In this document: positions 3,001-46,479 of the stretch, piece after piece
Layout of the letters: each line of letters starts with the position of its first letter
How positions within the stretch are numbered: position 1 is the first letter of the stretch
DNA from: Candidatus Pyrohabitans jungbluthii
Lineage (GTDB): Archaea > Hydrothermarchaeota > Hydrothermarchaeia > Hydrothermarchaeales > BMS3B
Length of the DNA: 64,000 nucleotides
Assembly: GCA_002010065.2 (NCBI GenBank)
Contig: MTMD02000002.1
Coordinates: forward strand, 556,740 to 620,739
Direction: 5' to 3'
Program-made: the position numbers and the translations under genes
Notes under the pieces: generated by a model
The model's database searches: none
What the model was told of the DNA's origin: nothing
Seen by the model: the letters and a program-made list of their open reading frames with translations, nothing else

Positions 3001-3663
3001 GAAGGTTATAGTGGGGGGTGTATTGTCGGGCGGTTGCCACGGCCAGACCACTAGAGGGTAGGGGTCCTCGTTGTTGGAATCTATGATGTAGGAACTGTCG
3101 CAGATGTTGTCCCCGTCCGAGTCAGTGCAGTCAGTGTTCTTCTCCCACTTATTGCCCACATTGTAGCCGTCGATGGTGGAGTACCAGGTGTTTGTAACTA
3201 AAAAAGTTAGAGAAATAGTTTCGTGATAATCTTCTTGGGTATTGTTGAGGTAGTTGTTGTAGTATGTAGCACCATTCCCGGTATTTTCAATACCATAGTA
3301 ATTGGAGGATATATTATTTCCTGTTATCACAGCGCTGGACCCTACTTGAATTCCTCCCTCCCAGTCGGTTATGACGCAGTTTCTTACCGTAACATTGACC
3401 AAGTCGGTGGGTATAGAAATTCCTATACTATTAGAATTATCAGTCCCATCTATTCTGTAACCCTGACAGTCAAGCACAACGTCACTTGCGGAGATAGTTA
3501 TGCAGGTGGAAGCGTAAGAGTCGATTATGTCACCTATTAGATAGTAAACACCTGAAGTGTCAATGTTAACCCCACATGAACTAATCGTCGCAGCACTACC
3601 CTCTCCAACAAGGGCAACAAAAGCTACCACCAAGCACAGGAGGAGTTGTCTTATTTTTTCCAT
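1..3663 (-). CDS. Very large secreted/surface protein with NosD/CASH-type beta-helix and multiple Ig-like domains; runs off the left edge (>1221 aa)
   Basis: Absent from the ORF track, consistent with having no stop inside the window. Hand translation from ATG 3663 gives MEKIRQLLLCLVVAFVALVGEGSA (signal peptide), then ...DVVLDCQGYRIDG...NVTVRNCVIT...GNKWEKNTDCTDSDGDNICDSSY...DNTPPTITFV. The same frame reads ...ALDVTPPRVENISIS... near base 1. Overlaps the upstream gene stop by 13 nt. Confidence 0.85.
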   Translation of the reverse strand, partial: MEKIRQLLLCLVVAFVALVGEGSAATISSCGVNIDTSGVYYLIGDIIDSYASTCITISASDVVLDCQGYRIDGTDNSNSIGISIPTDLVNVTVRNCVITDWEGGIQVGSSAVITGNNISSNYYGIENTGNGATYYNNYLNNTQEDYHETISLTFLVTNTWYSTIDGYNVGNKWEKNTDCTDSDGDNICDSSYIIDSNNEDPYPLVVWPWQPPDNTPPTITFVPPTDPDGATITDRRYTFINVTLSEPGTAWLEWNGTNESMSGSGTNWYINKTNLANGNYTYRVWANDSAGNLNVSETRTIEIAAPADTTPPLWSNPSASPPAPVSYSFSQTYQFNVTWSEPDSAIDTVLIEHNFTGSLVNYTVSSYSGSTYSYTYPSLAAGVYQWRMYANNTEGLVNATDIFYYTVSKASPTLNLTASPGWSVTYGSETNITGMETNLGDEDVTYTLYRNGTPVANPDISTLAAGVYIYVFNTSGGQNYTSGSVSQALEVLKADSSVHLYINGTRSDAVVNQFDTLNFTAVLVVPDSGNVTVTTNYSDGVDKVLVSGSSPLEVIIQMNTSGVFYFNATFEGNENYTSSFENFTVRVNPVDIAPPEIQIHSPANGSVQGDHTPLLNVSISDESTTFIWYSVDDGDNSTPFAGNTLLLNLSFLSNGLHNLTVYANDSWGNLNASAVSFTVNASVIRVPEEVPTIQAGIDYATPAETVYVAPGTYTENVFVNKSINLIGGGNTSTFIVAADPSAHALLISNTSAVNISGFTIRGANASGASGIYLYNTNGSSIQDIKVEQNYLGITLEKSHGNTISSNNITGNQDYGLKVLACFNNLIYSNFIYGSVYDSGTNYWNSSTGGNFYSGYEGWDTDGDGIGEQPYNISGGTNIDYLPLTDRLDNQAPKFENPIASRTYLRTGDTITVTVEVYDAASGVDNSSVFILYENGTVLAQMHNISQSSFMAEITVDYLEGLHTYNFSARDVAGNVNSSQQLTIVVDNTPPTLHRETPRSEEIFNISSILFRLSIEENLSNFSYCDVYINGEKNLRLNFSNLPGNSSNQTYIELSEGVYTWYANCTDSAGNSKSSESWNFTVDLSAPSTSDDAPSEWQRSEFTVNLSCTDNLSGCNYTYYRIDNSSWQEGNQIFIDTEGNHTIEYYSVDRAGNAESIKHSFAALDVTPPRVENISISSEYLTTGASLWVNASIADLLSGVNTSSIKILNENGSPISTMVEVS

Positions 3664-6239
3664 GGCACCCAAGCCTTAAACAGAGCTAATACTACTATAG
3701 AGATTAAAATAACCAGGTTAGGCCCGCAGATGCCCTTCTTCTCTGGTGATTCTCCTTCTTCAACGATTTCCTCTTTGACAACCTCCTCTTTTTTCTCAGG
3801 TGGTTGAGAATAATCTTTACCGGAAGAGGCGGCTTTCTTCTTTGCCTCTTTCACCTGCTTTTCGCTGAACATCATAATTCCAAACTCTTCAAATGGAACA
3901 ATGCTTCGGGTTTCCTGTACACTGTAGCCAGAGTTAGGGCTGCCTGAGATTGCGAAGAAACCAAACCTATCGGTTTTCACAATAAAGTAAACATATTCGT
4001 AATCCTCTGAATAGGGCATGGTTTCAAGCTCTATCCAGACATTATCTTCTTTTATGTAACCCTTGATAGTATTAACGCTTACATCATTATTTTCCAGCCA
4101 TGACTTTGCTATTCTGAATTTTATCTCTGCACTTGCAACATATGCATCAGGTTTATCAAAGTGTATTTTATAGTACCCATATACCTTTCCAGAAGGTTCC
4201 TCAAAAATGAAAGCTGGTTTTTCTTTGTGGGTATCCACACAGATCTTCGTATAGTACATATCCTGGGCTCCAATAATGCCTATTGAAGCCACATCCGGCA
4301 CTGCTTCGGGATCGAAAATCGCAGTGCCAGTGCTCCCAGCAAGTATCTTGGGAATTTCCATACAGTTCTCCGCAAGCCCGCCACCTCCACCGCCGCCCGC
4401 CGCTGGTGGAGGCGTCTCGCCCGGAGGTAGAGAAATCTCAGTAACGTTAATTGTCACCTCATCGCTCGCCACGTTCCCTGCTGTATCGCTGGCTTCCAGT
4501 TTGTAGCTCCTCAGCCCCACACTGGAGGTATCAACAGACCATTCTATTGTGCTGCCGGATGCATAGACCCCACTAACTAAGAGGGTTTCGTTTAGATATA
4601 TTCTGAAGTCTTTCGGGTGCTCCTCGGTAATTGTCCAAGTGATTGTTGTGGCGGTTCCCTGTTCAACTTCTGTTCCCGGACTAACGCTTCTGGTTATCTC
4701 AGGAGCCTCCAGATCTATCTCTATTGTTCTGCTCTCGCTGCTCCCCCAGTTTCCTGCGAGGTCTCTGCCATAAACCCTGTAGGTGTGTGTGCCGTGGGTA
4801 ATCCCAGACTTTGTCCCAGACCAGCTATCCCCAGAGCCGCTCATCGAGATATTTTCTACTCCATCCCACTCCAGCAACGCCTCGCTCAAATCTTCGGTGG
4901 CGGTTATGGCAACTGTAATACTGGTGTCAGAAGTTACTGCTCTGTCCTGAGGCGTGGGTGAAACAAAGCTTATACTTGGTGGAGAGGTGTCAGGAAGCTC
5001 AACAGTAAAACTCACAGAAGCCTCGGCGATGTTGTTCGCCAAGTCGACGGCTATAATTTTAATAGTGTGGCTACCCTCTGAGGCGTTGATGGTAATGGGC
5101 GGGCTGAAGGGCAGGTAGGCACCCCCATCTAGGGAGTAGAACCACCTTGCCACACCCTCGTCGGCGCTTACGTCGAGAGAAACCTCTGTGGAGGGGTATG
5201 TTATACTCTGGGGCGAGTTAATTGTTATCTGAGGCGGAGCTAGGTCCTTAAGTTCCTCTGGCGATGAAGTGGAATAGAGGGGTAGATTGTCACTTCCCAG
5301 AAGGCGGGTATAGGCATTGTAAGCAGAGTCTCCTATTCCATCGTTGTTGTTGTCGGTGCCGGTGTAGTCCCACCAGTAGTTGCCACCTATGTACTGCCCG
5401 CCGATGATATTTTCCCCCGAAGTTTTTGCGGTATTCCAGGTATTTGATGTATCTTCGCTTGCGGTGTTGTCCACGTATACGAAATTGTTGTAGAATAAGT
5501 TGTTTGAGGAGGAGGTTATAAAGATACCAACGGCATTCTCAACAGAAGAGTAGATAACATTGCTTTTAACAGTATTGGAGTTTGAAGAACTCTCCAAGAC
5601 TATGCCGCCATTTGATACCCCTCCCTTTATATCGTTGCCTTCTATTGTATTGGAAGAGGAGGAGCGCAGGTATATTCCCATGGATGAGCTTCCTATAATG
5701 CCGTTGTTTTTTACAATGTTTCCATCGGAATTCTTTATTCTTAGGGCCTCTCTGCTGTAGATAATCAAATTGTTTTCAACCGTCACGCTTGAAGCGTCTT
5801 CTAGCAGAATTGGATATGGGACTCCTATAAAAGCTGAATTTTTAATTGAAAATCCCTGCCCTGAAACTTTTATTCCAAATTTGGCTCCCTGGAAGACAAA
5901 ATTTGACACCTCTGCGTTGTCTGCGGTTACTGTAATCAGCGTGTCAGTTGTCCTGGGTAAAAGTATGGGGTTGTTTTTACCTAGAAGCTTTAGACTCTTG
6001 GATAGAAAAATCCCAGCCTCTTCCTCATATATACCATCGCACACCACAATCGCGTCATTGTTCGCAGCCTCGGCAACCGCCTTTCTAATAGGATTTGGGT
6101 ACTCGGAGGATGAGTAATAGCTATCTCCGTTTTCACAGGGGGCGGTCCCCTGGTAAACTACCAGAGTTGCTGCATTTACTAAAGAAAAACTCAGCATTAC
6201 AACAGCAAGCACCCACAGTTTCTCTGAATATCTATTCAT
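3651..6239 (-). CDS. Surface protein: beta-helix (NosD/CASH) + Ig-like repeats + PGF-pre-PGF-like domain + CGP-CTERM-like C-terminal anchor
   Basis: Signal peptide MNRYSEKLWVLAVVMLSFSLVNA; GIYLRSSSSNTIEGN repeats; GGNYWWDYTGTDNNNDGIGD; DxxPP-delimited Ig modules; Gly linker; FGFFAISG; C-terminus KKGICGP + TM + KK. ATG 6239 preferred over TTG 6254. Confidence 0.85.
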   Translation of the reverse strand: MNRYSEKLWVLAVVMLSFSLVNAATLVVYQGTAPCENGDSYYSSSEYPNPIRKAVAEAANNDAIVVCDGIYEEEAGIFLSKSLKLLGKNNPILLPRTTDTLITVTADNAEVSNFVFQGAKFGIKVSGQGFSIKNSAFIGVPYPILLEDASSVTVENNLIIYSREALRIKNSDGNIVKNNGIIGSSSMGIYLRSSSSNTIEGNDIKGGVSNGGIVLESSSNSNTVKSNVIYSSVENAVGIFITSSSNNLFYNNFVYVDNTASEDTSNTWNTAKTSGENIIGGQYIGGNYWWDYTGTDNNNDGIGDSAYNAYTRLLGSDNLPLYSTSSPEELKDLAPPQITINSPQSITYPSTEVSLDVSADEGVARWFYSLDGGAYLPFSPPITINASEGSHTIKIIAVDLANNIAEASVSFTVELPDTSPPSISFVSPTPQDRAVTSDTSITVAITATEDLSEALLEWDGVENISMSGSGDSWSGTKSGITHGTHTYRVYGRDLAGNWGSSESRTIEIDLEAPEITRSVSPGTEVEQGTATTITWTITEEHPKDFRIYLNETLLVSGVYASGSTIEWSVDTSSVGLRSYKLEASDTAGNVASDEVTINVTEISLPPGETPPPAAGGGGGGGLAENCMEIPKILAGSTGTAIFDPEAVPDVASIGIIGAQDMYYTKICVDTHKEKPAFIFEEPSGKVYGYYKIHFDKPDAYVASAEIKFRIAKSWLENNDVSVNTIKGYIKEDNVWIELETMPYSEDYEYVYFIVKTDRFGFFAISGSPNSGYSVQETRSIVPFEEFGIMMFSEKQVKEAKKKAASSGKDYSQPPEKKEEVVKEEIVEEGESPEKKGICGPNLVILISIVVLALFKAWVPWKK

Positions 6240-6362
6240 TCCACAGTCCCTCAAAACACTGGCACAACCTTTGAGACAAACCTAACCAGTTAAAACTTTA
6301 TCTTAAAAATTTTCATCATGATTAAAATAATTTTTTATTTTGGCAGTTTGTCAATTTAACAT

Positions 6363-6977
6363 TTATCCCTTCTTTCCCAGGTTTTTCAATCGGTTAAATA
6401 ACTTTTTCATCAATCTTACTTCATTTTTACCATTTGCAGCATATATATTTTGGTTTTCAGGTATTACATAATTAAAAACTTTAGCAAGGCAGTCATCACA
6501 GAAATATAGTGACTTTTTGTCTATTTCATAAACGCTGCTGGAGAACTTCATGTTGCAGTTCTCATTTGAGCAATGGTTTAATCCGAAGGTATGTCCCAGC
6601 TCATGAAGAGCCTCCTTCAGCAACCTTTCAAGGAAAATCTTAGAGTGGTATCCCCGGTAGTAACCCTCCATTAAGCGAACAGGTGAAATCACGGCGCACC
6701 TCCCTCCCAGGGAAGCTAATCCAAAAATATAGTCAAAGTTCGCAACTGTTATGTCCCTACTAATAACACCAAGCACTTTATCAGCTTTTGTGAATCGTAT
6801 AGTGAGGTCGTCTAAAAGGATATCTGCAAGCACCTGCCCCCTTTCATTAAACCAAAGAGGCAGTTCTTCCGGCGGAGAAATCAAAACATTTTCAAAATAC
6901 TCCTTCAACCTTAATTTCAGGTACTCAAGCCAGAACTTATTCACGTCACCAATTGGAAGAATTTCAAGAGCTACCAC
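6363..6977 (-). CDS. amzA: Archaemetzincin (peptidase M54) zinc metalloprotease
   Basis: HELGHTFGLNHCxxxxCxM metzincin motif with Cys4 zinc site (C...C...CDDC); YIFGLA motif. Confidence 0.9.
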   Translation of the reverse strand: MVALEILPIGDVNKFWLEYLKLRLKEYFENVLISPPEELPLWFNERGQVLADILLDDLTIRFTKADKVLGVISRDITVANFDYIFGLASLGGRCAVISPVRLMEGYYRGYHSKIFLERLLKEALHELGHTFGLNHCSNENCNMKFSSSVYEIDKKSLYFCDDCLAKVFNYVIPENQNIYAANGKNEVRLMKKLFNRLKNLGKKG

Positions 6978-7079: not shown

Positions 7080-8378
7080 CTAAGAGAAGCCCCACTTCCT
7101 CAGCTCTGCCTTCGCTTTCCTCCTTTTACCTTCTAATCTCGCTATCTTCTCCTCTGTCAGGGCGATGTAATCCTTAAGCTGCTTCTCAAGTTTTTCCACT
7201 TTCGCCAGCTCTATGCGTGACCTCTCATCGCTGCTCTCTCCAGAGAGTGAGTCTTTAAAATCGTAATACTTCTCCAGGCACTTCTCCATTATTCTGCGCA
7301 GACTGAAGCCGCCTAGGAGAATCATGGCATCAACGCTCTTACTCTCGGGAGAGGTGATCAAGCTGGTGTACCTCAGAATCCCTCCTCGCCCGCCTGCCAG
7401 GTGCTTCACAGCCCACTCGCGGGAGATGTCCTCTAAATCTTCCTGGGTAATCTCACCCTTCAGCACCTTCTCTTCAGGGGCGATAACTATTATGTAGGCC
7501 ATTGTGGCGGTGCCCTTGTCCAGGGGTACCATTGCGTTGTTGGAAGCGCTCTCTAGGATTGCGTCCAGGCTGAGCACATCTGGGTCATTCCCAAGGCTCA
7601 GGCAAGGGGTGAAATGGATTGTCCCTAAATTGCTGGGGAGCTGATAGTAGTCTGCGATATCTATCGTTGCCTTCGAGGCATAGGTGCTGGGCGCAATCAG
7701 CATGTGTATCGCCCTTATAATCTCCTCGTTTATCCTCTGGTAGCGCTCCTCCTTCTGCCCCCGCCCTAGGTCGAGAATATGCTCCACCTGTGAGTTGTCC
7801 ACAAGGATTACCAACGCAGCGTTCTGCTCGCCGTTATAGCGCAACAACCTTGAGAGGCCACAGATGGCGTTGAAATGCCTCTGCGGAGCCTCAAAGTCAT
7901 AGGGAAAGATGCCCAGCGCTATGAAGTTGTTTATCCTCTCCATGCCGAAGCCAGGGTTCCTCCTAACTCTGTGGATGATGTAGGGTAGCGACCCGTTGCC
8001 TGTGCCTCCTCCCAGGGTAGCGATACCAAGGAGCACATCGCTGCTCCGAAGCCTTAAGCTTGCGATGTATCTTCGTATGTTCTCGTAATCCTCAATTGCT
8101 TCTCTTTCGCCAAGAACCCAGTTGTTACCCGCGCCGCTTGGAGCCCTGCCAAAAATGCAAACCCGCTCGCGTTTTATCTTCTCGTACTTTTCCCTCAGCT
8201 CGGGGCTCTGCGCAAAGATGTGCTCCAGCGGCTTCTCGGGCTTAACGTCCGCCGGCGTTGTATTGAGGAGAAGCACTCTATCGCCGATGCTCGGATTTTT
8301 ATACTTCGCGTAGTAAAGAAAGGCTATGCGGTTTGCGCCCTGTCCGCTCGCTATTATACCCCATCTTGTAGCTTGCAT
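7080..8378 (-). CDS. Tubulin/FtsZ-superfamily GTPase B (divergent, with eukaryotic-tubulin-like motifs)
   Basis: T1 SGQGANRI, T3 SGAGNNW, T4 TLGGGTGNG, T6 VILVDN, T7 TIDIAD, then IHF; C-terminal helices. Confidence 0.85.
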   Translation of the reverse strand: MQATRWGIIASGQGANRIAFLYYAKYKNPSIGDRVLLLNTTPADVKPEKPLEHIFAQSPELREKYEKIKRERVCIFGRAPSGAGNNWVLGEREAIEDYENIRRYIASLRLRSSDVLLGIATLGGGTGNGSLPYIIHRVRRNPGFGMERINNFIALGIFPYDFEAPQRHFNAICGLSRLLRYNGEQNAALVILVDNSQVEHILDLGRGQKEERYQRINEEIIRAIHMLIAPSTYASKATIDIADYYQLPSNLGTIHFTPCLSLGNDPDVLSLDAILESASNNAMVPLDKGTATMAYIIVIAPEEKVLKGEITQEDLEDISREWAVKHLAGGRGGILRYTSLITSPESKSVDAMILLGGFSLRRIMEKCLEKYYDFKDSLSGESSDERSRIELAKVEKLEKQLKDYIALTEEKIARLEGKRRKAKAELRKWGFS

Positions 8379-8382
8379 GCTT

Positions 8383-9756
8383 TCAACCTTTGAGCTTTAA
8401 TGTTTTCTTCTCAAATTTAACCTCTGGATGTGTTTCGCTATAGCGTTTGAGGAAATCCTCGGCATAGCGCACCTTGAGTTCCTCTGCACTCACCTCGCCA
8501 TTCTCCCTGAGCTTCTGCTCTATAATCTTTTCTATCGCCGGGTAGTTTTTAGCTATCTTCACAGTCTTATATCTGGTGTCAAATTCGCCAGATAGGGTCT
8601 TAAGCACATCAAGCGCTTCCTTTGAAAACTTGGAGAAATCCTTTCTGGGGTCAAGCTTTGAGACGTACCTCTCAACCCCCTTCCTTCTTACCCCAGCCAC
8701 CTCCAGCTTTTTCAGCTCTTCTTCTAGGGCTACAATCTCCCTTGCGAGGGCTCTAGCAACCTCAAGCGTGAGCCTCTTTGCTTCTTCCCTGAGGGTGCTT
8801 AGTTCGCTGAGGTAGCCAGGGTCATCATAGCTCAGCACCTTCTCCCTAAGGCTTAAAACTGCGCGCTCCTCCTTTACAAAGTCCTCCTTGATAAACTTGA
8901 GAAGGCGCTCCAGGTAGCTAATTATCTCCTTCTTTTCCTGCAGGAAGGGCTTTGTAAGGTAGCTTGCAGCCTCGCTTCGCACCTTCTGAAGCTTGGGTAT
9001 AACCTCTACGCTATGTCGGCGCTCCTTAACTATCTCAAGCTCCTTTCTCAGGTGAACAACCTCAGCAGAGATGCTTTCGGCTGTATCTAGGAGAAACTCC
9101 GCTTCGCTGATGCACTTCTGAATTATCTTCAGATATACCTCCTCGCTTCGTCTGCGCTTTTCAAGTAGCTCTCCCAGCGTAGCGGAGGGCATCTTCACTA
9201 TTCGTCTCAGCTCTTCGTACTCCTCGCCCACAGAGAATCCGCTCTCAACCAAAGCTTTCGCGGCGCTGAGCAACTCTTCCATCCTCTTCGCTGCTGCTTC
9301 ACCATAGCTCGCAGCAGCCAGCGACTCCAGGCTGCGAAGCTGCTGCTCAACTTTCCTGCTCTCCAGCTCAATCGCGGTGAGCGTCACCTTTTCAATTTTC
9401 TTCTCGTTTACCTCAAAGTCCTTCGTGAAGAATCCTTTTGATATAAGCTCCTTCCTTATCCTCTTCAAATCCCTCATAAAGGGCTCAATGTCGATAAACT
9501 CAGAGGCTTCTTTTATGTTATCTTCTATCTTATCCAGCGCACTCCTAATTTTGTTCAGAATTTCAATTTTAAGAAGCATTACGGTCTTGTCGGTCTTGCT
9601 CTTCCACCAGGTGTAAATTAGGCTAGCAATGAGCACGGATACTATTACTCCAACCGCAAGGTAGGATACAAAGTTTATTCCAAATGTGAGGAGCAGGAAC
9701 AAGCCTGCACCCAGCGTGGCAAGGACTACCAGGGCGGTTATCACATATTCGTTCAT
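8383..9756 (-). CDS. Membrane-anchored long alpha-helical/coiled-coil protein (2 N-terminal TM helices, possible C-terminal winged helix)
   Basis: Two hydrophobic N-terminal segments, then about 400 aa of E/K/L-rich helical sequence; 2-nt and 4-nt gaps to the flanking GTPase genes. Confidence 0.8.
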   Translation of the reverse strand: MNEYVITALVVLATLGAGLFLLLTFGINFVSYLAVGVIVSVLIASLIYTWWKSKTDKTVMLLKIEILNKIRSALDKIEDNIKEASEFIDIEPFMRDLKRIRKELISKGFFTKDFEVNEKKIEKVTLTAIELESRKVEQQLRSLESLAAASYGEAAAKRMEELLSAAKALVESGFSVGEEYEELRRIVKMPSATLGELLEKRRRSEEVYLKIIQKCISEAEFLLDTAESISAEVVHLRKELEIVKERRHSVEVIPKLQKVRSEAASYLTKPFLQEKKEIISYLERLLKFIKEDFVKEERAVLSLREKVLSYDDPGYLSELSTLREEAKRLTLEVARALAREIVALEEELKKLEVAGVRRKGVERYVSKLDPRKDFSKFSKEALDVLKTLSGEFDTRYKTVKIAKNYPAIEKIIEQKLRENGEVSAEELKVRYAEDFLKRYSETHPEVKFEKKTLKLKG

Positions 9757-9758
9757 TT

Positions 9759-10958
9759 TTAAGCCTCGCTCTCAAGGAAATCTTTCTCGTATTCCTCAAG
9801 TACGCGCAGGGAGATATCTTTGTACTGGCTTGCAAGCTGGCTCAACGTCTTCAGGCGAGAAATCTGATTTGGGCGGTAGGTTAGCAACACAGTCGCCGTC
9901 GCTAGGTTGCGCTTTGTCAGGGCGACGCCGAAGTGGGTCTCTCCAAGGCGAGAGTGCTCCTCCATCACCTGCTTAGCCATGCTGGTGTTTATCCTGCCGC
10001 GCTTTGTCAGGTAAACAGGGGGGATGCGCAGCAGCACAAGGTTCTTCTCCGCGTGCTCTGGTCTAACGTCGGCGAGGGTGAGCTTCATGAAGCTCCTGTA
10101 GAGCAGGGAGATGACATCTATCTCCTTATACCCGCCGAAGGGGAAGATATAGTGCAGAAAGTTTCTCGTTCTCTCAGAAGCTCTGCCTAGGGCTGCGAAG
10201 CCAGGACGAGTGCGCTTTCCAAAGGAGAAGCTTGTCGCGGCTATCATGTCCTTGAGGTCAATCACAGGAGCGTAGCCCTCGTACTGCGATGGGTCCACAC
10301 GTTCTATCACAGTGCCTATGAGAATGTCCCGTATGCTCCTAGCAACGTACTCATTGTACCTCTGGAACAAGCTCTCGGCACTTTCTGCGTACGCAAGCTT
10401 CTGGTTGTCTACCAGAATCACAGAGTCCACGTGCTCTATGATCAGGTTTAAGCTTTCCACCGCATTTTTCGCTGTAAGACCGCCCTCATGCGTTGCTGGC
10501 AGCACAACTATGGCGATAACCGGAATTCTCATCTCCTTCAAAACGCTCGCAACCACAGGTCCAGCCCCACTCCCGGTGCCACCACCCAGAGCAAAGGCAA
10601 CAAAAGCCACGGGCACGCCTATACCCGAGCCCTCCTCGCTCTCGATGCTTAACCTCTCCACAATCGCCTCCTTCAGGTTGTCCCTGAAGCGCATGGCATC
10701 TTCCTCTGCCTTTGCGCGGTTCTTCCCGTAGCCCCCGCTCACAAAGTGCTCAAAGCCGTGGAGTGTGCCCGGGATGAACCCTCTATCCCTTGACATTCCA
10801 ATCCAGTGCTCTCGCTTTATGTTTTTGAGTGTCTGCAGGTCTAGGGTAGCCGAGTTTATGGCTATGGGCACGGCTATTTTGAACATTATCTCATCATAAA
10901 AAGCAGCGTCTATTATTGCTCCGCCGCACTGTCCCACACCTATAAAAGCGTATGGCAT
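9759..10958 (-). CDS. Tubulin/FtsZ-superfamily GTPase A (CetZ/tubulin-like, 399 aa)
   Basis: Start refined to ATG 10958 (GGTGA RBS). T1 GVGQCGG, T2 AINSATLDL, T3 GGYGKNRAKA, T4 ALGGGTGSG, T5 LPATHEG, T6 VILVDN, T7 VIDLKD. Confidence 0.9.
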   Translation of the reverse strand: MPYAFIGVGQCGGAIIDAAFYDEIMFKIAVPIAINSATLDLQTLKNIKREHWIGMSRDRGFIPGTLHGFEHFVSGGYGKNRAKAEEDAMRFRDNLKEAIVERLSIESEEGSGIGVPVAFVAFALGGGTGSGAGPVVASVLKEMRIPVIAIVVLPATHEGGLTAKNAVESLNLIIEHVDSVILVDNQKLAYAESAESLFQRYNEYVARSIRDILIGTVIERVDPSQYEGYAPVIDLKDMIAATSFSFGKRTRPGFAALGRASERTRNFLHYIFPFGGYKEIDVISLLYRSFMKLTLADVRPEHAEKNLVLLRIPPVYLTKRGRINTSMAKQVMEEHSRLGETHFGVALTKRNLATATVLLTYRPNQISRLKTLSQLASQYKDISLRVLEEYEKDFLESEA

Positions 10959-11038
10959 GATTTCACCAGCTTGCTCTGAGGTAACCTCGCTGTTCGCTTT
11001 TATATTTATTTCAAAGGTCAAATATAAAATATTATTGC
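10959..11038. promoter_or_regulatory. Divergent promoter region between the GTPase operon and the surface-protein pair
   Basis: 80-bp head-to-head gap with TATA-like TTTTATATTTATT (about 10998-11010) and palindrome GAGGT-A-ACCTC (10978-10988). Confidence 0.5.
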
Positions 11039-11989
11039 ATGGGCTCAAGGGTGCTTCTTCTCATTCTGTTCACGATTTCGTTGATTCCCAGTGTTCATTC
11101 TCTGGACTGTGGAGATGTCCTCGCGGAGCTTCGTGGCTTCACTTCGTCAGCCTTCGCTGCCTATCCAGAGCTTAGGCAGGTGAAGCAGGATACCTTGCTT
11201 CTGCTCTACTCCCAGCAACGCACAGCATGCGACATTCAGCTTTTGAACTTTGCCTCCTCTTCCATGGAGTATCTCAAAAGCATGGATGCCGCCTACCTTC
11301 TTGTAAGCAGCGCTGAGCTGGAGTCTCAGAGGGAGGGGGTGAAGAAGGCGATAGAGGCTGAGAGGTTTATCTCTGAGATGCGCTCAGATAGCACTGAGCT
11401 GGGAATCCTCGCTCAAGATGCGGTGCAAGAGGCTGAACAGGGGAGGGAGAACTTCCTACTTTCGCAGGCTCTGACCTTCGAGAGTAGGGCTGAGAAGGCT
11501 GAGAGCACAAGGGATAAGCTGGCAAACTTTGAGCTCGCCATAGCTTGCTACGAGGCGGCAGACGCTCTTCAGGCGAATAGCTTGAAGGTCAGAAAGCAGA
11601 GCTTAGAGGAGAAGTACATAGCTGACATAGTGGCAGCGCAGGAGTACCTGAGCGAAGCAATAGCTTTGCTCACGCGCGCAGAAAAGCTTGAGGTCGCCTT
11701 CCTCGGCTTTGTGGACGCGTACACCTTAGCAAGGGAAGCAAAGATGAGCCTTGTCAGGGCTAAAGAACTTTACCAGCTTCATCACGAGAAGGAGAAGCTG
11801 GCGGAGGTTGAGGAGGTCTCTATTAATGCTGAAGAAGTCTACTCCTCAACCAGAAAGAGGATTCTGATGCTATTTGCCATTGTTTCTCTAACTCTCACCT
11901 CGCTTTCGGTGTACATCCACAGCATAATTCTAAGCTGGGAAAGGGATACCTATGACTGCTATCTTGGTAACGAGCTTGTGGGGGCATAG
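11039..11989 (+). CDS. Single-pass surface protein with all-helical ectodomain and C-terminal TM
   Basis: Signal peptide MGSRVLLLILFTISLIPSVHS; A/E/L-rich helices; TM near C-terminus; tail SWERDTYDCYLGNELVGA. Confidence 0.8.
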   Translation: MGSRVLLLILFTISLIPSVHSLDCGDVLAELRGFTSSAFAAYPELRQVKQDTLLLLYSQQRTACDIQLLNFASSSMEYLKSMDAAYLLVSSAELESQREGVKKAIEAERFISEMRSDSTELGILAQDAVQEAEQGRENFLLSQALTFESRAEKAESTRDKLANFELAIACYEAADALQANSLKVRKQSLEEKYIADIVAAQEYLSEAIALLTRAEKLEVAFLGFVDAYTLAREAKMSLVRAKELYQLHHEKEKLAEVEEVSINAEEVYSSTRKRILMLFAIVSLTLTSLSVYIHSIILSWERDTYDCYLGNELVGA

Positions 11990-11990
11990 C

Positions 11991-14021
11991 ATGCGCTTCT
12001 TGAGTATTCTTCTTGTTACGCTCTTACTCTTCGCCTCACCTGTGAGCGCCCAGGTTACGGCAAGCTTTGACTATGATGAGGTGGACTTTTACTTCGACAA
12101 GCCCAAAAATGAGGTCTCCTATTTTGAGGAGAACTTAACCTTGGAGTTCTTCAATGCAGACAATGAGAGCGCAGCGATACTCTCTGGTCTTGAGGCAACG
12201 CTCTCTGGCGAGGCGAAGGATAAGGGCATGAGTGTTGTCCTCGAGAAGAGCTATCTTCGGGTTGAACCCAACGATAAATCTTACCTCACCATTTCCTTCC
12301 GTGCACCCCCAAGCGTGCCTGAGGGCAGGTATGAAGCGAAGCTTGAGGTTAAGGGCAACTACACTTACATTACCAAGCAGGGTGTCCACACCCTACTCCA
12401 TGAATTCTACATCACAGTAAATGTTGACCACCCACCTGCGACGCTTGCGGCGAGCTGGGACCTTGCGGAATGGGGAAAGCTCAGAGCAGGGCAGAGCTTT
12501 GAGCGCACCCTCACCGTGAGGGAGGTTTATGGGTACGCTGGGGCAAGCAACGTTACGCTCTATCTCTCAAGAACAGGACCCGTGAACCTCACCTACACCT
12601 CGAGCTTAGGGGATATACCCGCAGGAGGGTCAAAGAGCATTAAGGTTAAGGTTCAGGTACCTGAGAGGTACCTTAGGCCGGGAGACTACAAAGTTGTTCC
12701 AAAGATTGTGAAAGATTACAAAACGCAGGTGTCAACGCTTGAGCAGGCTAACTATACCATCCCAAAGCCAGAGATGGCGATTTCCACCACTAAGTTAAAT
12801 TTCGGCAGGCTCACCTTTGAGGTTGGCAAGGATACAGCGACAGCAAGCATAACTGTCAGCGAGGTTGGTGGCTACACTCCAATCGAGGGTTTGAGCATCT
12901 CTCTGGTTAAGGGGGAGGAGGGGTGGGTGGGCTACACCCAGGTTAACTACATTCCCCCAGGGAGGAATGCAACAGTAAACTTTACCCTTATCCTGCCCCC
13001 GGATGCAAGCCTCGGAAAAAAAAGCTGGATTTTTGAAATAACTACTGTGCATGCCGGGAGTGTGGAGATTCTTGGGGAGGCTATAGTGTATTTCCCAGGT
13101 TTGGATGAGGCGGAGCGTTCCCTCGCTGCCCTGCCCTCGCTGCCCTCTCATCCAGAGGTCAAAGAGGCGGTGCAGAACCTGCGGGAGATGATAGCAGCCT
13201 CTAGGGATGTAACCGAACTCAGGGAGATAGCAATGGTCATGTCGGTGTACAGCGGCGTTAGCTCTTTTGTGAATATCCTAGCAGGTGCTGAAGGTAAGCC
13301 CCTTGAGGAACGCGTTGAGAGCATTATACTTGCAAAGAGGAGTCTCAACAGAGCAAAGATAGGAAGCGAGAACCTGGAGGACAGGAACTTAAAGAAGTAC
13401 GCTATACCCGCGGTTGAAGCCTTAGAGAACGTGTGGAAAAGGGAGGCAGGCTCAGCAGCAGAGGCTCTTGAGGCTGTGGTAAAGCAGAAGGAGGAAAGCG
13501 ATTACCGTGGCGCAGCGCTGGACTACAAGAGGCTTAAGACGCTTTATTCGCTGCTCGGTGAAGCTGAGAGTGCGAAGGAGTACGCCTCAAAGCAGGAGGA
13601 GATGGAGCGTGCCTATTTCAACTCCCTATCTGAGGCGATGTCCCTCCTCAGGCTTGCGGAGGAAAATGTAAGCGCAGCTAGAAGGCTCACCTTCAATATA
13701 AAGGAAGCCTCCTTTGTTATCAACCCCTTCCATTACGAGGCGGTTATGGCTTACTACGATGATGCTCTCTCCAGCGTTGAGAGGGCAAGGCTTCTTCTTG
13801 ACAGGGCGGGCGAAGATGAGGAGGCGAAGCTGCTTCAGAGGAGGATGAAAGAGCTCAAAGACAGGAAGCGCACCATTGAGAGAACCTTCAGGGTCTACCT
13901 TGCCTTCCTCACCCTCTTCTTCCTGTGGTTTGTGGCGAGGGTGACTCTGGGTCTGCTGCGCTGGATTCGTGACTCGGAGGCTCTTGCAGAGGGCGACGTG
14001 CTCCTTGGGGCCGAGGGTTAA
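11991..14021 (+). CDS. Single-pass surface protein: about 3 Ig-like domains + helical stalk + C-terminal TM
   Basis: Start refined to ATG 11991, 1 nt after the upstream stop: MRFLSILLVTLLLFASPVSA signal; beta-rich modules (VPEGRY, LRPGDY, ASLGKK); N-x-S/T sequons; TM; tail RWIRDSEALAEGDVLLGAEG. Confidence 0.8.
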   Translation: MRFLSILLVTLLLFASPVSAQVTASFDYDEVDFYFDKPKNEVSYFEENLTLEFFNADNESAAILSGLEATLSGEAKDKGMSVVLEKSYLRVEPNDKSYLTISFRAPPSVPEGRYEAKLEVKGNYTYITKQGVHTLLHEFYITVNVDHPPATLAASWDLAEWGKLRAGQSFERTLTVREVYGYAGASNVTLYLSRTGPVNLTYTSSLGDIPAGGSKSIKVKVQVPERYLRPGDYKVVPKIVKDYKTQVSTLEQANYTIPKPEMAISTTKLNFGRLTFEVGKDTATASITVSEVGGYTPIEGLSISLVKGEEGWVGYTQVNYIPPGRNATVNFTLILPPDASLGKKSWIFEITTVHAGSVEILGEAIVYFPGLDEAERSLAALPSLPSHPEVKEAVQNLREMIAASRDVTELREIAMVMSVYSGVSSFVNILAGAEGKPLEERVESIILAKRSLNRAKIGSENLEDRNLKKYAIPAVEALENVWKREAGSAAEALEAVVKQKEESDYRGAALDYKRLKTLYSLLGEAESAKEYASKQEEMERAYFNSLSEAMSLLRLAEENVSAARRLTFNIKEASFVINPFHYEAVMAYYDDALSSVERARLLLDRAGEDEEAKLLQRRMKELKDRKRTIERTFRVYLAFLTLFFLWFVARVTLGLLRWIRDSEALAEGDVLLGAEG

Positions 14022-16561
14022 ATTATGCTTGCTTTGAGCCTTGAGAGCACCTCATCGTTGCGAAGCATGTCCTCTATGCACAGGAGGAGGTAATGGGAAA
14101 GGGCGAAAAATGCCCGAGCTTCGAGGTGGCTCCTCCTCCCGCCCTTCTCAAAGAGCTTCCTTGAAATCTGCCAGAGGGAAGCAAGAGGATAGGTGGAAAT
14201 CTCCTTTATTAGTGAGGTGATTTTCCTGTCCACTTCGAAAATCTCCCTCTCAAGCTCGTCCTTTGTCAGCTTTCCAAGAAGGAAGGCCACTGTTTCTTCT
14301 AAGGGTAGCGGAGGTGCACCGCAAGCTTCTGCTTTCTGCTTTGGCGAAGCTTGGTAGAGGGCGACATTCTTCCAGTCCTGCATGGCTTCGCAGAGCATTG
14401 GAACAGCCTTTTCTGCTGCACTTATAAGGGCATCCACGTGTGCCTTAGAATCACTAAATTCAGATGTCAGGGCAAGGACTTCGATGCCATCTATAATACC
14501 GTAGCCTATGCTTCTGAAGTAAGCTGGCAGGCATGGGTCGTGCTCGGCGACACGCTCATAGGCTTCGTCAAGGGAGCGGCGCAGCTCTTCAAGGCGCTCT
14601 TCTTCCTCCCTGCCAAGGCGAAGCGCAGGCTCAAGCTCCACCTCAAGCCTGTCTACTACGCTCTCTGGCGTGAATTTCTTGAATGCTGGTTTAAAGCCCT
14701 TCTTCTCCACAGAAATCGTCGTAGCTTCGGGCTTAATCCTGAGGGTGGCGAAGCCTTCTGCGTCGGTTGTAGCCTCAATGTTTCCGCTCTTTACCAGTGC
14801 TCCGGAGAGAGGCAGGCTGCTCTTTGAGCTTCTGACTCTTACCCGCAGGGTGCGAAGAGCCTCGCGAGGTTCTGTAACCTGTGCCTGAGGCTTAGCTGGC
14901 TTGCTCCTTTTAAGTAGGAAAAACAGTAGCGCAGCAAAAATTGCGAGGGCTGCAATCACAGCGGCTTTATTCCTGCTTGGCAGGCTTGTCCACCTCTCCT
15001 CGAAGAGAGGCACTGCCAAAATTTTTTCTCCAGATATTATGAAAATTCGGCTCGCGTCAGGGGAGATTGTGGCATACTTAACGCCCTTCTCAGGATAGTA
15101 CCGCCATATAAGCCTGCCTTGTTCCGCGTCGTACAGTTCAACGCTCTCTTGAGAAGCTGCAAGCAGGTAACCCCTGGCTGAGTGGAGTGAACTCATGTTC
15201 TGCTCCAGGGTTATATTCCAGAGGTGCTCACCTTTAGCAAAGGCGTGGATCTCATCCTTGAGCAGAGCGAAGACCACATCCTCATCCATGGTGACAGCAA
15301 GAATTGTTTTTTCAAAGCTTGTATTCCACACCAAAGCGCCGTCGTAGGTGTATAGATAAAGGGTGTCGTTCCCTGCAATGGCTATGCTCTCATTGGATAT
15401 CGCTAAGCTAGCTGGCTTGAACTCAAGCTGCTTTGTCCAGAGCAGCGCGCCCGCGGTGTTGAAGAGGTACAGAGTATTACCGGCAATCACGCTTGAGCCC
15501 CGAGGGGAAGCGGCGAGAAGCTCAGTATTCTTATCAATGCTCGCGTTCCACACCTTCTGAGTGCCCCTGTACATGGAGAGTAGGTTTTTCTCAGCCACTA
15601 AGGAGTACTCCTCCGAGGCTGCAATCATGGGTGAAGTTTTCAGTGTTATAGAGGCGAGCATCTCTCCCGTGGGCTTGAGGATGTACACCTCATTTCCCGC
15701 GACGGCGATAAGGTTCTGCGAGGTGGCGTGAAGCTGGGCAGGTGAGCGTGGAAGCAGTATCTCATAGAACTCAAGCCCCGCCTGAGAGAGGTTTACAAGG
15801 CGAACCCTTCTCGAAGCCTTGAAGCTCTGATTTCCCAGCGATACCACAACCTCTATTGGATACTCACCAGGGGGCAAGCCCGAGGTGTTCCAGTTGTAGG
15901 GCAGAGTCTCCGCAGTCTGGGTGCCGTTGATAAGCACAGCCACTGTCGCATTCTCTGGCACAATCGTGGCATTTATTGCAATGCTCTCGCCGGTGGTGAA
16001 AACCTCTCCAGGTTTGGGGGAAGTTATTTCCGCATAGAGCGCAGGTGTGGTGTTGAGTACCTTAACCTCTGCGAAGGCAAAGGCTACGGCACAGCGCCCA
16101 AGGGAGGAGCACTGCTGGGGTGAGCACAGGTTGCTCGCCTCGCTGTTTGAGGCAAAGCTGGTGTCGAAGGCAAACACAGCAGTGAGCCTGTAGCTTCCCG
16201 GCTTTCGTGGAGCAAAGAAGCTGAACTCCACTGAAACGCTCTGGTTGGGAAGGGCGCTACCTGAGTATAGCTTGGCTACCTCAGCTTTGCTCCAGTTTCC
16301 GAAGAGGTTGACCCTCGCTTCGCCGGTAGCGTAGTTTCCAAACTTCCATGAGAGAACACCCCTCACATGCTGCCCCGGAGCGACGCTTATGCTGCTCTGA
16401 ACCCCCTTTGCATTAGGGTCAAGGTCAAAGGAGGAGAGGGTTATCACTTCGAGGTTTTTTCCAGGGGTGGCGTAGTAGACATCCTTGGGGCATAGAGAAT
16501 AAGCCTGGGGAAGAGCAAAGGCTATGAGGATGAGAAGAACAACCTTCCTCAGCATGCACAT
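14018..16561 (-). CDS. Single-pass membrane protein: Ig-like domains + PQQ/WD-type beta-propeller, TM, then carboxypeptidase-regulatory-like and helical domains
   Basis: Signal peptide; repeats LYLFNTAGALLW / LYLYTYDGALVW / LYDAEQGRLIW; TM AAVIAALAIFAALLFFLL followed by KRSK; PLSGALV...TTDAEG...VEKKGF. Confidence 0.75.
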   Translation of the reverse strand: MCMLRKVVLLILIAFALPQAYSLCPKDVYYATPGKNLEVITLSSFDLDPNAKGVQSSISVAPGQHVRGVLSWKFGNYATGEARVNLFGNWSKAEVAKLYSGSALPNQSVSVEFSFFAPRKPGSYRLTAVFAFDTSFASNSEASNLCSPQQCSSLGRCAVAFAFAEVKVLNTTPALYAEITSPKPGEVFTTGESIAINATIVPENATVAVLINGTQTAETLPYNWNTSGLPPGEYPIEVVVSLGNQSFKASRRVRLVNLSQAGLEFYEILLPRSPAQLHATSQNLIAVAGNEVYILKPTGEMLASITLKTSPMIAASEEYSLVAEKNLLSMYRGTQKVWNASIDKNTELLAASPRGSSVIAGNTLYLFNTAGALLWTKQLEFKPASLAISNESIAIAGNDTLYLYTYDGALVWNTSFEKTILAVTMDEDVVFALLKDEIHAFAKGEHLWNITLEQNMSSLHSARGYLLAASQESVELYDAEQGRLIWRYYPEKGVKYATISPDASRIFIISGEKILAVPLFEERWTSLPSRNKAAVIAALAIFAALLFFLLKRSKPAKPQAQVTEPREALRTLRVRVRSSKSSLPLSGALVKSGNIEATTDAEGFATLRIKPEATTISVEKKGFKPAFKKFTPESVVDRLEVELEPALRLGREEEERLEELRRSLDEAYERVAEHDPCLPAYFRSIGYGIIDGIEVLALTSEFSDSKAHVDALISAAEKAVPMLCEAMQDWKNVALYQASPKQKAEACGAPPLPLEETVAFLLGKLTKDELEREIFEVDRKITSLIKEISTYPLASLWQISRKLFEKGGRRSHLEARAFFALSHYLLLCIEDMLRNDEVLSRLKASII

Positions 16562-43947: not shown

Positions 43948-44154
43948 CTATAGATACCCCAAACCTCTCAGCCTCTCTTTGACCTGCTCCTCTTCTTCTT
44001 CGCTGTAGACCACCTCTGCCTCTTCTTCCTCATCTTTCAGTATTTCTTCGAGGACAAAATTCACGTACTCTTCCACAGAGCTGAATTCTTCGCTTTCGTC
44101 GACACGCTTCTTTATCTCTTCATATATCTCATCCTTTATCTCGATTTTTGCCAC
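43948..44154 (-). CDS. Small ribbon-helix-helix (CopG-like) protein with acidic RLxxLGY tail
   Basis: AKIEIKDEIYEEIKKRV...FSSVEEYVNFVLEE; tail EEEEEQVKERLRGLGYL; AGGTGG RBS. Confidence 0.8.
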   Translation of the reverse strand: MAKIEIKDEIYEEIKKRVDESEEFSSVEEYVNFVLEEILKDEEEEAEVVYSEEEEEQVKERLRGLGYL

Positions 44155-44163
44155 GCTACCACC

Positions 44164-45765: not shown

Positions 45766-45822
45766 GGCTATCCCTCTTTTCGAATTACCATTGCATAGCT
45801 AATTCTACCTACTTTAAGAAAA

Positions 45823-46479
45823 TTATACCATCTGTGCTTCTACTAAATATCCAAATGCGAAGCGACGTTTAGATTCTTTACTTTTTAAATTCAATATTAA
45901 ATCTAAAGTTATACTAATAGTAGCAATTAATAAATTGATTAATCTAAAAAAAATATTATTTGGAAATATGACATTTATCATCAAAAAAGCAACTGAAAAT
46001 GGGCCCCAACCTACAGGAATCACTTTAACAACGAATCCTTCCTCTTCAAACATTTTTTTTAGTGCCATATCAGTAAATCTGTGGAAGTCCTGTGGGTCTG
46101 CGTGAAAAGGATACAAAAATGGTACATATGCATAAAATTTGCCATCCTTTTTTAAAACTCTCTTAACTTCCTTAATGACTTTTTTAGTGTTATATATATG
46201 CTCTAAAACTCTAAAAGCAACACATACATCAAATGATTCATTTTTAAAAGGCAGGAAACCTTCAGCGGTTCCAATAACATTTGGTCTTTTCTTGTTAACA
46301 ATGTTCAATGATACTATTTCTAAATTAGAAAAATTTTCAAACTTCCTATAATATATATCCCTGCCGGAGCCAATATCAAGTACTCTTCCTTTAATTCTAA
46401 GACGTTTTATGGTAAGGTCTGAAGCTATTCTAGACAAACTCCTATTATTTCTAATTATCTCTATTAGTATAGAGTCCAT
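45823..46479 (-). CDS. Class I SAM-dependent methyltransferase
   Basis: VLDIGSG, LPFKNESFD, VLEHI, PFLYPFHADPQDFHRFT; start refined to ATG 46479. Confidence 0.85.
   Translation of the reverse strand: MDSILIEIIRNNRSLSRIASDLTIKRLRIKGRVLDIGSGRDIYYRKFENFSNLEIVSLNIVNKKRPNVIGTAEGFLPFKNESFDVCVAFRVLEHIYNTKKVIKEVKRVLKKDGKFYAYVPFLYPFHADPQDFHRFTDMALKKMFEEEGFVVKVIPVGWGPFSVAFLMINVIFPNNIFFRLINLLIATISITLDLILNLKSKESKRRFAFGYLVEAQMV

Follow-up and report, generated by a model that had tools for sequence, protein, structure and literature searches.

Six genes at positions 7080-16561 of the window, by which we mean the whole 64,000-nt stretch of the Candidatus Pyrohabitans jungbluthii genome that was analysed (Hydrothermarchaeota; contig MTMD02000002.1), encode a real, conserved and uncharacterised tubulin-family cytoskeletal system with a dedicated membrane tether. 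Two of the genes encode GTPases of the tubulin/FtsZ superfamily, here named A and B, which flank the gene of an anchor protein, anc; the other three, named S1, S2 and R, encode surface proteins with signal peptides. All six open reading frames (ORFs) were confirmed, and they are listed below together with the intergenic gap between A and S1 and with the cytoplasmic part of R (Rc).

7080-8378, minus strand: GTPase B, 432 amino acids (aa), a deep-branching protein of the tubulin/FtsZ superfamily
8383-9756, minus strand: anc, 457 aa, with an N-terminal two-helix membrane hairpin, a helical cytoplasmic part of ~400 aa and a conserved C-terminal domain
9759-10958, minus strand: GTPase A, 399 aa, a CetZ-like, non-canonical tubulin-superfamily protein
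10959-11038: divergent intergenic gap between A and S1, 80 bp, AT-rich, with TATA-like stretches at ~10998-11011 and ~11020-11036
11039-11989, plus strand: S1, 316 aa, with a signal peptide, an extracellular helical domain, one transmembrane helix and a cytoplasmic tail of ~20 aa
11952-14021, plus strand: S2 (longest ORF), with a signal peptide, NEW3/CARDB-like beta-sandwiches, an S1-like helical domain, one transmembrane helix and a tail
14018-16561, minus strand: R, 847 aa, with a signal peptide, an immunoglobulin (Ig)-like domain and a PQQ-type propeller outside, a transmembrane helix at ~530 and Rc inside
14018-14899, minus strand: Rc, the cytoplasmic part of R (residues ~555-847), with a transthyretin-like beta-sandwich and a helical bundle

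The same layout had been proposed in an earlier note on this DNA, made from the sequence alone, and we confirmed it: A, the transmembrane helical protein and B follow one another with gaps of 2 and 4 nt, an 80-bp gap separates A from the divergent S1, and R converges on the surface genes. As read from the sequence, the ATG of anc lies 2 nt past the stop codon of A, and the ATG of B 4 nt past that of anc. The longest ORF of A opens at a TTG in position 11048; since the alignment of 19 homologues begins with the ATG in position 10958, we considered this Met as the start of A and hence 80 bp as the length of the gap, which, judging from its sequence, is presumed to act as a bidirectional promoter. 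For S2, the Met of the signal peptide, at 11991, is 1 nt beyond the S1 stop and represents the probable start. S2 and R are convergent and have 4 nt in common at their 3' ends.

Two tubulin-superfamily GTPases

Both A and B are full tubulin/FtsZ-fold proteins: the two-domain fold with its T7 acids is found in B by structural modelling and in A by full-length alignment with CetZ1. Both also carry the signature of the superfamily, that is the T4 loop and the PF00091 domain, B being at the cut-off for the latter. Precisely, in the Pfam search A scored 85.1 bits (cut-off 33) and B 32.5 bits, just below the cut-off, the score of B being 34.3 bits in a six-frame search of the genome and that of its haloarchaeal homologue P0107 40.3 bits. 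The loops read GVGQCGG (T1), GGGTGSG (T4) and VIDLKD (T7) in A, and ASGQGANR, GGGTGNGS and TIDIADY, respectively, in B, so that GGGTG[SN]G is common to the two proteins. The T7 acids are invariant in either family, D240 and D243 in 61 sequences of B and D234 in 20 rows of A.

The best solved match of A was Haloferax volcanii CetZ1 (4b46; E 2.2e-19, residues 32-419), which aligned over the full length, A having an insert of ~10 residues after T2. The AlphaFold2 (AF2) model of B, obtained from an alignment of 61 sequences, had a predicted local distance difference test (pLDDT) value of 90.5 and a predicted template modelling (pTM) score of 0.91. In Foldseek this model matched FtsZ, CetZ, TubZ and tubulins with E-values from ~1e-17 to 5e-19, among them M. 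jannaschii FtsZ 2vap (E 4.6e-19, template modelling score by target, TMt, of 0.77), CetZ1 4b46 (TMt 0.83) and OdinTubulin 7eve (score by query, TMq, of 0.73), and its superposition with OdinTubulin and BtubB extended across ~455-465 columns of the alignment, with TMq values of 0.71-0.73. At the level of sequence, a profile of 13 B proteins found FtsZ, CetZ, TubZ, gamma-tubulin and OdinTubulin with similarly weak E-values (7e-12 to 1e-6), the value for TubZ 4xcq (8.9e-8) not being better than those for FtsZ or CetZ. A and B are dissimilar from each other, each scoring 16-28 bits on the other's family hidden Markov model (HMM) and more than 220 bits on its own.

A quick maximum-likelihood tree was built from 42 chosen rows, with FtsZ as outgroup: 14 sequences of A type, 12 of B type, 7 named CetZs, the 5 other paralogues of the genome, 2 haloarchaeal third paralogues and 2 extra paralogues of Altiarchaea. 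In this tree A (14 rows), B (12 rows) and canonical CetZ (10 rows) form separate clades, with values of 99, 99 and 97, respectively, in the Shimodaira-Hasegawa-like approximate likelihood ratio test (SH-aLRT), and the canonical CetZ clade excludes both of the others. Inside A and B the taxa follow the same order, i.e. Hydrothermarchaeota, Altiarchaea and Micrarchaeota together, then ANME-2, Methanoperedens and Halobacteria. The tree, together with the lack of CetZ_C, FtsZ_C and Tubulin_2 matches in Pfam, supports the reading of the earlier note in that both GTPases stand outside the canonical CetZ and FtsZ clades.

Three assignments to known families were considered and rejected. As FtsZ, A and B would be expected to match FtsZ_C (PF12327), which neither of them did at E<=1, and their TIGR00065 scores (80.7 bits for A, 38 for B) are far below the cut-off of 295.2. 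As canonical CetZ, they lack any match to CetZ_C (PF21011) at E<=1 and branch outside the CetZ clade. In the homologue search of A, the proteins of its own family (P0126-P0192) had E-values of 1.6e-40 or better and were all without PF21011; the canonical CetZs, ~28% identical to A, followed from 2e-19 (P0193 on), all of them carrying PF21011. As FtsZl1/FtsZl2, they were rejected because T7 and the C-terminal domain are kept, Tubulin_2 (PF13809, cut-off 27) is sub-threshold in A (11.5 bits) and without a match in B, and no vWA or kinase was found in the genes or their flanks. With regard to tubulins, no match to Tubulin_C (PF03953) was found in A or B in the Pfam search, and the matches to tubulin sequences of the PDB were weak (E 1e-5 to 1e-7).

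A and B are not the only tubulin-family genes of this genome, which has seven: two true FtsZs (FtsZ_C at 124 and 114 bits), three CetZ-like genes, A and B. A stretch of 3.5 kb situated ~100 kb before the window (G000:C2:456030-459544; L003, L004 and L006) contains the three CetZ-like genes, namely a canonical CetZ (CetZ_C 229.4 bits), a 338-aa form without CetZ_C and a divergent one (91 bits).

The membrane anchor and the surface proteins

The anc protein begins with two hydrophobic helices ~4 residues apart, continues with a long helical region and ends with a conserved C-terminal block (~residues 395-450); it belongs to no Pfam or NCBIfam family. We modelled the complex of B with anc residues 55-457, each chain with its own alignment. 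According to the interaction prediction score from aligned errors (ipSAE), the B-anc pair reached 0.61 (0.62, 0.61 and 0.60 in the single runs), vs 0.01 for the best of three controls, and so passed a mark that 58 of 80 complexes of solved structure reach, as do 2 of 110 mismatched pairs, a rough calibration in which own alignments were used. The runs had at least 96% of contacts in common and a partner pLDDT of at least 86. The predicted contacts are between B 261-280 and anc 400-431, the latter being within the top 3% most conserved of the anc windows of the same length; on the side of B the contact residues in the model are at the end of strand 255-264, in the next loop and in helix 271-279. 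By the standard tubulin/FtsZ numbering, we take this region of B to be S7, the M-loop position and H9, hence a lateral and not a longitudinal face. The earlier note had the transmembrane helical protein tether both GTPases; the complex model supports the tether for B, and its support is limited to B.

The nearest predicted structures of anc are unnamed archaeal clusters (TM score 0.48) and rows with a low TM score that resemble SelB winged-helix domains, all of which we considered as leads only. Two of the unnamed clusters nearest to anc (TM scores 0.48 and 0.33) consist of proteins of ~790-800 aa, mostly from Bathyarchaeota, and may represent an anchor of related type from a lineage that is absent from our loci. 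As regards B itself, its C-terminal helices end in WGF (window 7080-7200). The long C-terminal helix with a conserved W-G-F is a feature of Hydrothermarchaeota and of one further homologue (P0076); the B of Micrarchaeota has L-E-G-W only, and the W-G-F motif is not in the B of ANME-2, Methanoperedens or haloarchaea. This W-G-F might be a second docking peptide.

A predicted anchor site on B also bears on an alternative in which one or both GTPases, B especially, would not polymerise but act as a switch, i.e. as a gamma-tubulin-like regulator, capper or nucleator for the other GTPase or for canonical CetZ or FtsZ. A GTPase predicted to be held by an anchor would suit such a role, and B is very divergent, with PF00091 at the cut-off and a profile that matches gamma-tubulins to about the same degree as several FtsZ chains (E ~1e-7). 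However, neither the fold of B nor its T7 acids and nucleotide-loop motifs show any loss, the predicted anchor site presumably leaves both longitudinal faces free (by the fold numbering used above), and the system also occurs in Micrarchaeota and Altiarchaea; on the whole, we consider the switch unlikely.

Concerning the surface proteins, S1 and S2 have cleavable-looking signal peptides, and S2 has many N-glycosylation sequons and NEW3/CARDB-like domains, hence their bulk is placed outside the cell and their tail of ~20 residues inside. This tail bears the motif [WY]-x-[RQ]-D-x5-6-G-[DNE]-x-[LVF]-[LV], which we found in both S1 and S2 of Hydrothermarchaeota, Methanoperedens, ANME-2 and Halobacteria; the shared cytoplasmic tail that had been noticed in the two proteins is therefore real, with a motif kept across phyla. 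In the ORF set of 81 loci, an HMM obtained from 16 sequences of S1 found S2 by its final 150-250 residues (E 2.5e-7 to 3.6e-4), and the S1-only HMM matches the S2 of the window at residues 524-685 (E 6e-5). In BLASTP, S1 vs S2 was not significant (E 0.70), though the top segment was the tail; it is thus on the S1-only HMM that the C-terminal homology of the two proteins is based. Judging from their sequences, S1 and S2 are most probably paralogous single-pass surface proteins. The structure atlas gave for S1 a match with one unnamed archaeal cluster (score 0.87), a lead only.

R has the Pfam domains PQQ_2 (propeller), Big_7 and CarboxypepD_reg. Its extracellular half matches, by the Rn HMM, a separate convergent gene in Methanoperedens and Halobacteria, therefore the R of Hydrothermarchaeota is a fusion of two modules. 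With the exception of anc, no non-tubulin part is conserved as widely as the other module, Rc. Its AF2 model had a pLDDT of 90.6, with a beta-sandwich that is transthyretin-like (5aq0_B, Z 13.2, root mean square deviation 1.5, 78 aligned residues); for the helical bundle there was no convincing match, since Foldseek returned the beta-sandwich only and the wide structure search designed helical cages (Z 7.6, residues 94-288). The A of Micrarchaeota, 525-604 aa in length, has a C-terminal beta-sandwich that is matched by the Rc HMM in 5 of 5 loci (E 1e-8 to 1e-12), and Methanoperedens and 9 haloarchaeal loci have a longer anc into which an Rc-type beta-sandwich is likewise inserted. These fusions place the domain in the cytoplasm next to A and link A, anc and Rc to one another. 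Examples of the micrarchaeal A are L039:12337-14151 and L048:12218-13840, with 3 more loci; another A homologue from the database, P0177, has a PEGA domain match.

Conservation and gene order across archaea

The sample for the genome-level analysis consisted of the genome of the window and 40 relatives, 41 genomes in all. B was found with a strong match (E<=1e-90) in 24 of the 41; exactly these genomes also gave a match for anc, and 23 of them one for A. The exception, G029, is a 70% complete genome in which the contig begins 204 bases before anc. With these queries, none of A, anc and B was found in the other 17 genomes, which include 3 of 3 of genus g2 (96-98% complete) and 6 of 6 of family f8 (80-96%). 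As relatives are not independent, the 17 genomes represent a handful of losses. In Hydrothermarchaeota the cluster is chromosomal, and its presence tracks genus and family lines. The identity of the G013 proteins to those of the window is 78% for A, 60% for B and 35% for anc, which suggests that A evolves much more slowly than B.

A degenerate-pattern scan with one genome per species gave 101 loci with a relative of B, 80 of which were kept. HMMs built for each family were run over the 80 kept loci and the window, with the following numbers of loci for each gene.

Hydrothermarchaeota, 22 loci: A 20, anc 21, anc directly upstream of B 21, Rc 11, S1 16, S2 14, all six 11
Micrarchaeota, 5 loci: A 5, anc 5, anc directly upstream of B 5, Rc 5, S1 0, S2 0, all six 0
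Methanoperedens, 1 locus: A 1, anc 1, anc directly upstream of B 0, Rc 1, S1 1, S2 1, all six 1
Halobacteria, 24 loci: A 22, anc 24, anc directly upstream of B 22, Rc 24, S1 22, S2 22, all six 20
Altiarchaeales, 4 loci: A 0, anc 0, anc directly upstream of B 0, Rc 0, S1 0, S2 0, all six 0
ANME-2/Methanosarcinales, 25 loci: A 1, anc 0, anc directly upstream of B 0, Rc 0, S1 0, S2 0, all six 0

The recurrence of the arrangement in five archaeal groups is far beyond chance, and most of the gaps in Hydrothermarchaeota are contig ends. All six genes stand together in Hydrothermarchaeota, Methanoperedens and Halobacteria, so the membrane and surface genes are syntenic with the GTPases elsewhere. The earlier note had named what would count against its idea, among other things GTPases nested within ordinary CetZ/FtsZ clades and no synteny in other genomes; what we found is GTPases outside the canonical clades and synteny across phyla.

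The core of A, anc, B and Rc is present in 5 of 5 Micrarchaeota loci, where Rc is a minimal protein of ~285 aa made of a transmembrane helix and Rc, and A is convergent and downstream. In ANME-2 and Altiarchaeales, B is alone within the flanks of its loci; a whole-genome search of 3 ANME-2 and 2 altiarchaeal genomes found homologues of A, anc and Rc elsewhere, in 5 of 5 genomes each, and in ANME-2 the A gene and the S1/S2 genes are arranged divergently, like those of the window. Altiarchaea have, besides the stand-alone A and the stand-alone B, a second A-like gene (A2) that adjoins an S1-like gene (L114:6325-11127, L115:9068-14295) and a further, very divergent tubulin-like gene of ~410 aa. 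In Methanoperedens, an RRXRR-domain gene (L071:9059-9919; PF14239, E 3e-39) lies between anc and B and looks like an insertion into an otherwise adjacent pair. As for Halobacteria, 19 of the 24 loci have an extra weak tubulin-like match; this third tubulin-like gene encodes a very divergent protein of ~530 aa (PF00091 44.6 bits; L077:1589-5513, L083:1157-4952, pHS2 L122:3366-6356) and is followed by a transmembrane/helical protein without Pfam family, upstream of A.

Some of the haloarchaeal copies are on plasmids. We found homologues of B on five plasmid records (NZ_CP082248.1, NC_010369.1, NZ_CP082288.1, NZ_CP081960.1 and NZ_CP126159.1), whose hosts are Natrinema, Halobacterium salinarum and three Halobaculum; these are large plasmids or megaplasmids, all typed as non-mobilizable, and locus L083 is also a Natrinema plasmid. 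Plasmid pHS2 of H. salinarum R1 has the full set, followed by a convergent PQQ-propeller protein, with two of the genes annotated as 'cell division protein FtsZ' and the rest as 'hypothetical'; A and B correspond there to OE_RS12060 and OE_RS12040.

These records, the patchy distribution in Hydrothermarchaeota and Halobacteria and the gene inserted between anc and B of Methanoperedens would fit a system that serves a mobile element and not the host cytoskeleton, in plasmid or DNA segregation (like TubZ or PhuZ), in conflict or as a cell-to-cell transfer apparatus. We hold such a function for very improbable. In fact, the six proteins and the four flanking genes gave no match to a DNA-binding adaptor, a partition ATPase, an integrase or a conjugation domain, the cluster of Hydrothermarchaeota is chromosomal and follows genus and family lines, and all the conserved partners are membrane or surface proteins.

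In the window, the cluster is flanked by the genes of an M54 peptidase, a NosD/beta-helix surface protein, an FtsJ/TRAM methyltransferase and a CCG-domain protein. These are unrelated housekeeping or surface genes, therefore we considered 7080-16561 as the unit. No Pfam match to a vWA or kinase domain was obtained in the six proteins at E<=1, nor in the four flanking genes, so that the absence of vWA/kinase partners, remarked upon before, holds for this range. Directly downstream of B, positions 3651-6977 contain the gene of the M54 (archaemetzincin-like) peptidase and that of an 867-aa NosD/beta-helix and Ig protein, the latter with a signal peptide and a C-terminal transmembrane helix; the M54 and NosD genes are not kept beside the cluster in locus L027. 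Farther away, positions 44000-64000 are a low-GC block (33-40%, vs 47-56% earlier in the window) with genes for glycosyltransferases, a Polysacc_synt flippase-like protein, a GDP-mannose dehydratase and epimerases and with three Phosphodiest-family genes, and has the look of an island for the biosynthesis of surface glycans.

The proposed machine and known systems

We consider it moderately probable that the six genes represent one membrane-bound and envelope-coupled cytoskeletal machine. In this machine, A and B, whose T7 (GTPase-activating) loops are intact, would assemble as a two-component filament system on the cytoplasmic face of the membrane. The filament would be tethered by anc, with the N-terminal helical hairpin in the membrane and the conserved C-terminal domain docked on the S7-H9 loop/H9 face of B, which we assume to be the M-loop or lateral side and to leave the longitudinal polymer interfaces free. 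R would couple the filament across the membrane by means of the cytoplasmic Rc, one transmembrane helix and the extracellular Ig/propeller part, and the short tails of S1 and S2, with their common motif, would be a second transmembrane coupling. The machine may position, cluster or move surface proteins, or shape the envelope. Such an accessory role at the envelope or surface is more likely than one in cell division, because true FtsZs coexist with the system, many complete relatives lack it and several haloarchaeal copies are plasmid-borne.

Several observations weigh against a single machine of this kind. The system is missing from 11 of 34 genomes of the same order, six of them 90-98% complete, and is therefore dispensable. 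S1 and S2 were found in 0 of 5 Micrarchaeota loci, and neither Rc nor R was found beside S2 in two Hydrothermarchaeota loci (L026 and L044) despite there being room. ANME-2 and Altiarchaea have the genes scattered, A with S1/S2 and B, anc and Rc elsewhere, hence the parts need not form one stoichiometric complex, and the plasmid copies of haloarchaea leave room for a mobile-element function. Polymerisation of A and B is what we infer from their fold and motifs only. The B side of the predicted interface is averagely conserved (0.56 for the region, 0.58 for the protein mean), and the score of the complex is the confidence of the model and not a measurement. Finally, the tree comes from a short search with SH-aLRT support only and has no tubulin, Btub, TubZ, artubulin or FtsZl rows, and in it B joins other long branches, a join that was flagged as unsafe.

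Within the proposed machine, A and B could be related in more than one way. They could alternate in one protofilament, like alpha/beta-tubulin or BtubA/BtubB, neither of them polymerising usefully alone. For this strict co-polymerisation, to which we give a chance a little short of even, the two proteins are dissimilar (see the HMM scores above), they are present or missing together in all the sampled lineages, their subtrees are congruent, and A, anc and B are translationally coupled, suggesting similar dosage; the strict co-occurrence, the congruent trees and the translational coupling favour an obligate A-B partnership. On the other hand, the T7 acids are complete in both proteins, so there is no alpha/beta-like asymmetry of the kind expected for a fixed heterodimer. 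Moreover, ANME-2 and Altiarchaea have A at one locus and B at another, and the slower evolution of A (78% vs 60% in G013) would be unexpected, though possible, for equivalent halves of a lattice. Archaeal FtsZ1 and FtsZ2, too, widely co-occur and are not known to be an obligate heterodimer. The split loci, the pairing of A with S1/S2 and of B with anc/Rc, and the lack of T7 asymmetry favour instead cooperating, separable filaments, and paired or cooperating homofilaments of A and of B are a serious candidate as well, somewhat under an even chance.

The genes could also belong to two sub-systems, A with S1/S2 and B with anc/Rc, whose distinct homofilaments would cooperate only loosely. This division follows the gene order, as the divergent arrangement of S2-S1 and A is kept in Hydrothermarchaeota, Methanoperedens and ANME-2 (with the A2-S1-like pair in Altiarchaea), the adjacency of anc and B, with or without Rc, is kept in Micrarchaeota, Halobacteria and Methanoperedens, and it is on B that the complex model docks anc. 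We nevertheless regard it as rather unlikely: each genome examined with one sub-module has the other too, and the A of Micrarchaeota is present without detectable S1/S2 and is fused to an Rc/anc-type domain, which ties A to the partners of B.

The largest claim that the proposed machine allows is that archaea have, in addition to FtsZ and CetZ, a third cytoskeleton of the tubulin family, in which an ancient, co-assembling A-B filament would be held by a lateral-face anchor and wired to propeller, Ig and CARDB surface proteins. We put it forward as doubtful. If true, it would be a prokaryotic transmembrane linkage from filament to surface, for protrusions, surface-protein patterning or cell-cell contact. 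Until now, archaeal tubulin-family biology has been that of FtsZ1/FtsZ2 (division) and CetZ (shape, motility), and this locus may help to explain how CetZ-like filaments are attached to the membrane and envelope. It provides a list of parts: two anciently paired new tubulin families, an anchor with a predicted docking site, and transmembrane partners with a cytoplasmic module and a tail motif, in a system that spans Hydrothermarchaeota, DPANN lineages, ANME/Methanoperedens and Halobacteria. As it is present on pHS2 of H. salinarum R1, which is genetically tractable, the hypotheses are directly testable.

In the literature, Santana-Molina et al. 2023 (PMC9871819) describe 'Halo.Tub' and 'CetZ-like' groups, tubulin-family proteins of Halobacterota and Altiarchaeota close to CetZ, with coiled-coil neighbours and quasi-tandem copies, and Brown & Duggin 2023 (PMC9856176) list 'non-canonical TSF proteins' (TSF, tubulin superfamily). 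By described context only, the likeness of Halo.Tub is to the haloarchaeal third tubulin-like gene, A and B with helical transmembrane proteins between them. The difference is that PMC9871819 and PMC9856176 present trees and a context figure without defining a system, and in what they say of these proteins there is no mention of the anchor, Rc, S1/S2, the members from Hydrothermarchaeota and Micrarchaeota, the conservation across phyla, or a mechanism. One homologue of B bears the database name 'FtsZ family protein, noncanonical', and no functional or system-level description of the cluster was found in print. The earlier note had called the system undescribed; this is only partly right, as CetZ-like and non-canonical proteins, which may be relatives of A and B, are mentioned in these two papers.

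Like A and B, FtsZl1 and FtsZl2 are divergent tubulin-superfamily proteins encoded in multi-gene, membrane-associated clusters alongside a true FtsZ. According to Makarova & Koonin 2010 (PMC2875224), FtsZl1 is without recognisable T6-H7 and C-terminal domain, is fused to a coiled coil and has genes for vWA, kinase, GTPase and OmpA proteins as neighbours; in contrast, A and B have T7 and a C-terminal domain, reach 11.5 bits at most with Tubulin_2 and have no vWA/kinase neighbours. As regards CetZ, its genes are not known from PMC9856176 to form a dissimilar pair around a dedicated transmembrane partner. A resembles CetZ in its full-length alignment with CetZ1 4b46, in its identity of ~28% to canonical CetZs and in its GxGQxGG T1 loop, and CetZs are accessory, non-division tubulin-family proteins of Euryarchaeota, as proposed here for A and B. 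The differences are that A and B have no CetZ_C (E<=1) and fall outside the CetZ clade, and that A has its insert of ~10 residues after T2.

FtsZ with its anchors (SepF in archaea, FtsA and ZipA in bacteria) is similar in that a tubulin-fold GTPase is held by a separate anchor protein. FtsZ anchors contact the flexible C-terminal peptide, whereas anc is predicted to touch B on its globular C-terminal domain (S7-H9); in addition, anc combines an integral-membrane hairpin with a large cytoplasmic part of helical structure and belongs to no Pfam/NCBIfam family. In the MreB-RodZ system a cytoplasmic filament is linked via single-pass membrane proteins to extracytoplasmic domains. We consider this as an analogy only, because the filament family is different, there is no homology, and no cell-wall synthesis enzymes were found by Pfam in the cluster.

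The comparison with BtubA/BtubB (and BtubC) and with alpha/beta-tubulin starts from an operon in which two tubulin-family genes, dissimilar from each other, are joined by a third partner that is not a tubulin. The sequence relation of A and B to these proteins is weak (E 1e-5 to 1e-7), with no Tubulin_C match, and a heterodimer of A and B is hypothetical; moreover, their partner is a membrane protein and their system includes surface proteins. With these differences, the cluster gives, after BtubA/B, a second prokaryotic case in which to ask how paired tubulins arise.

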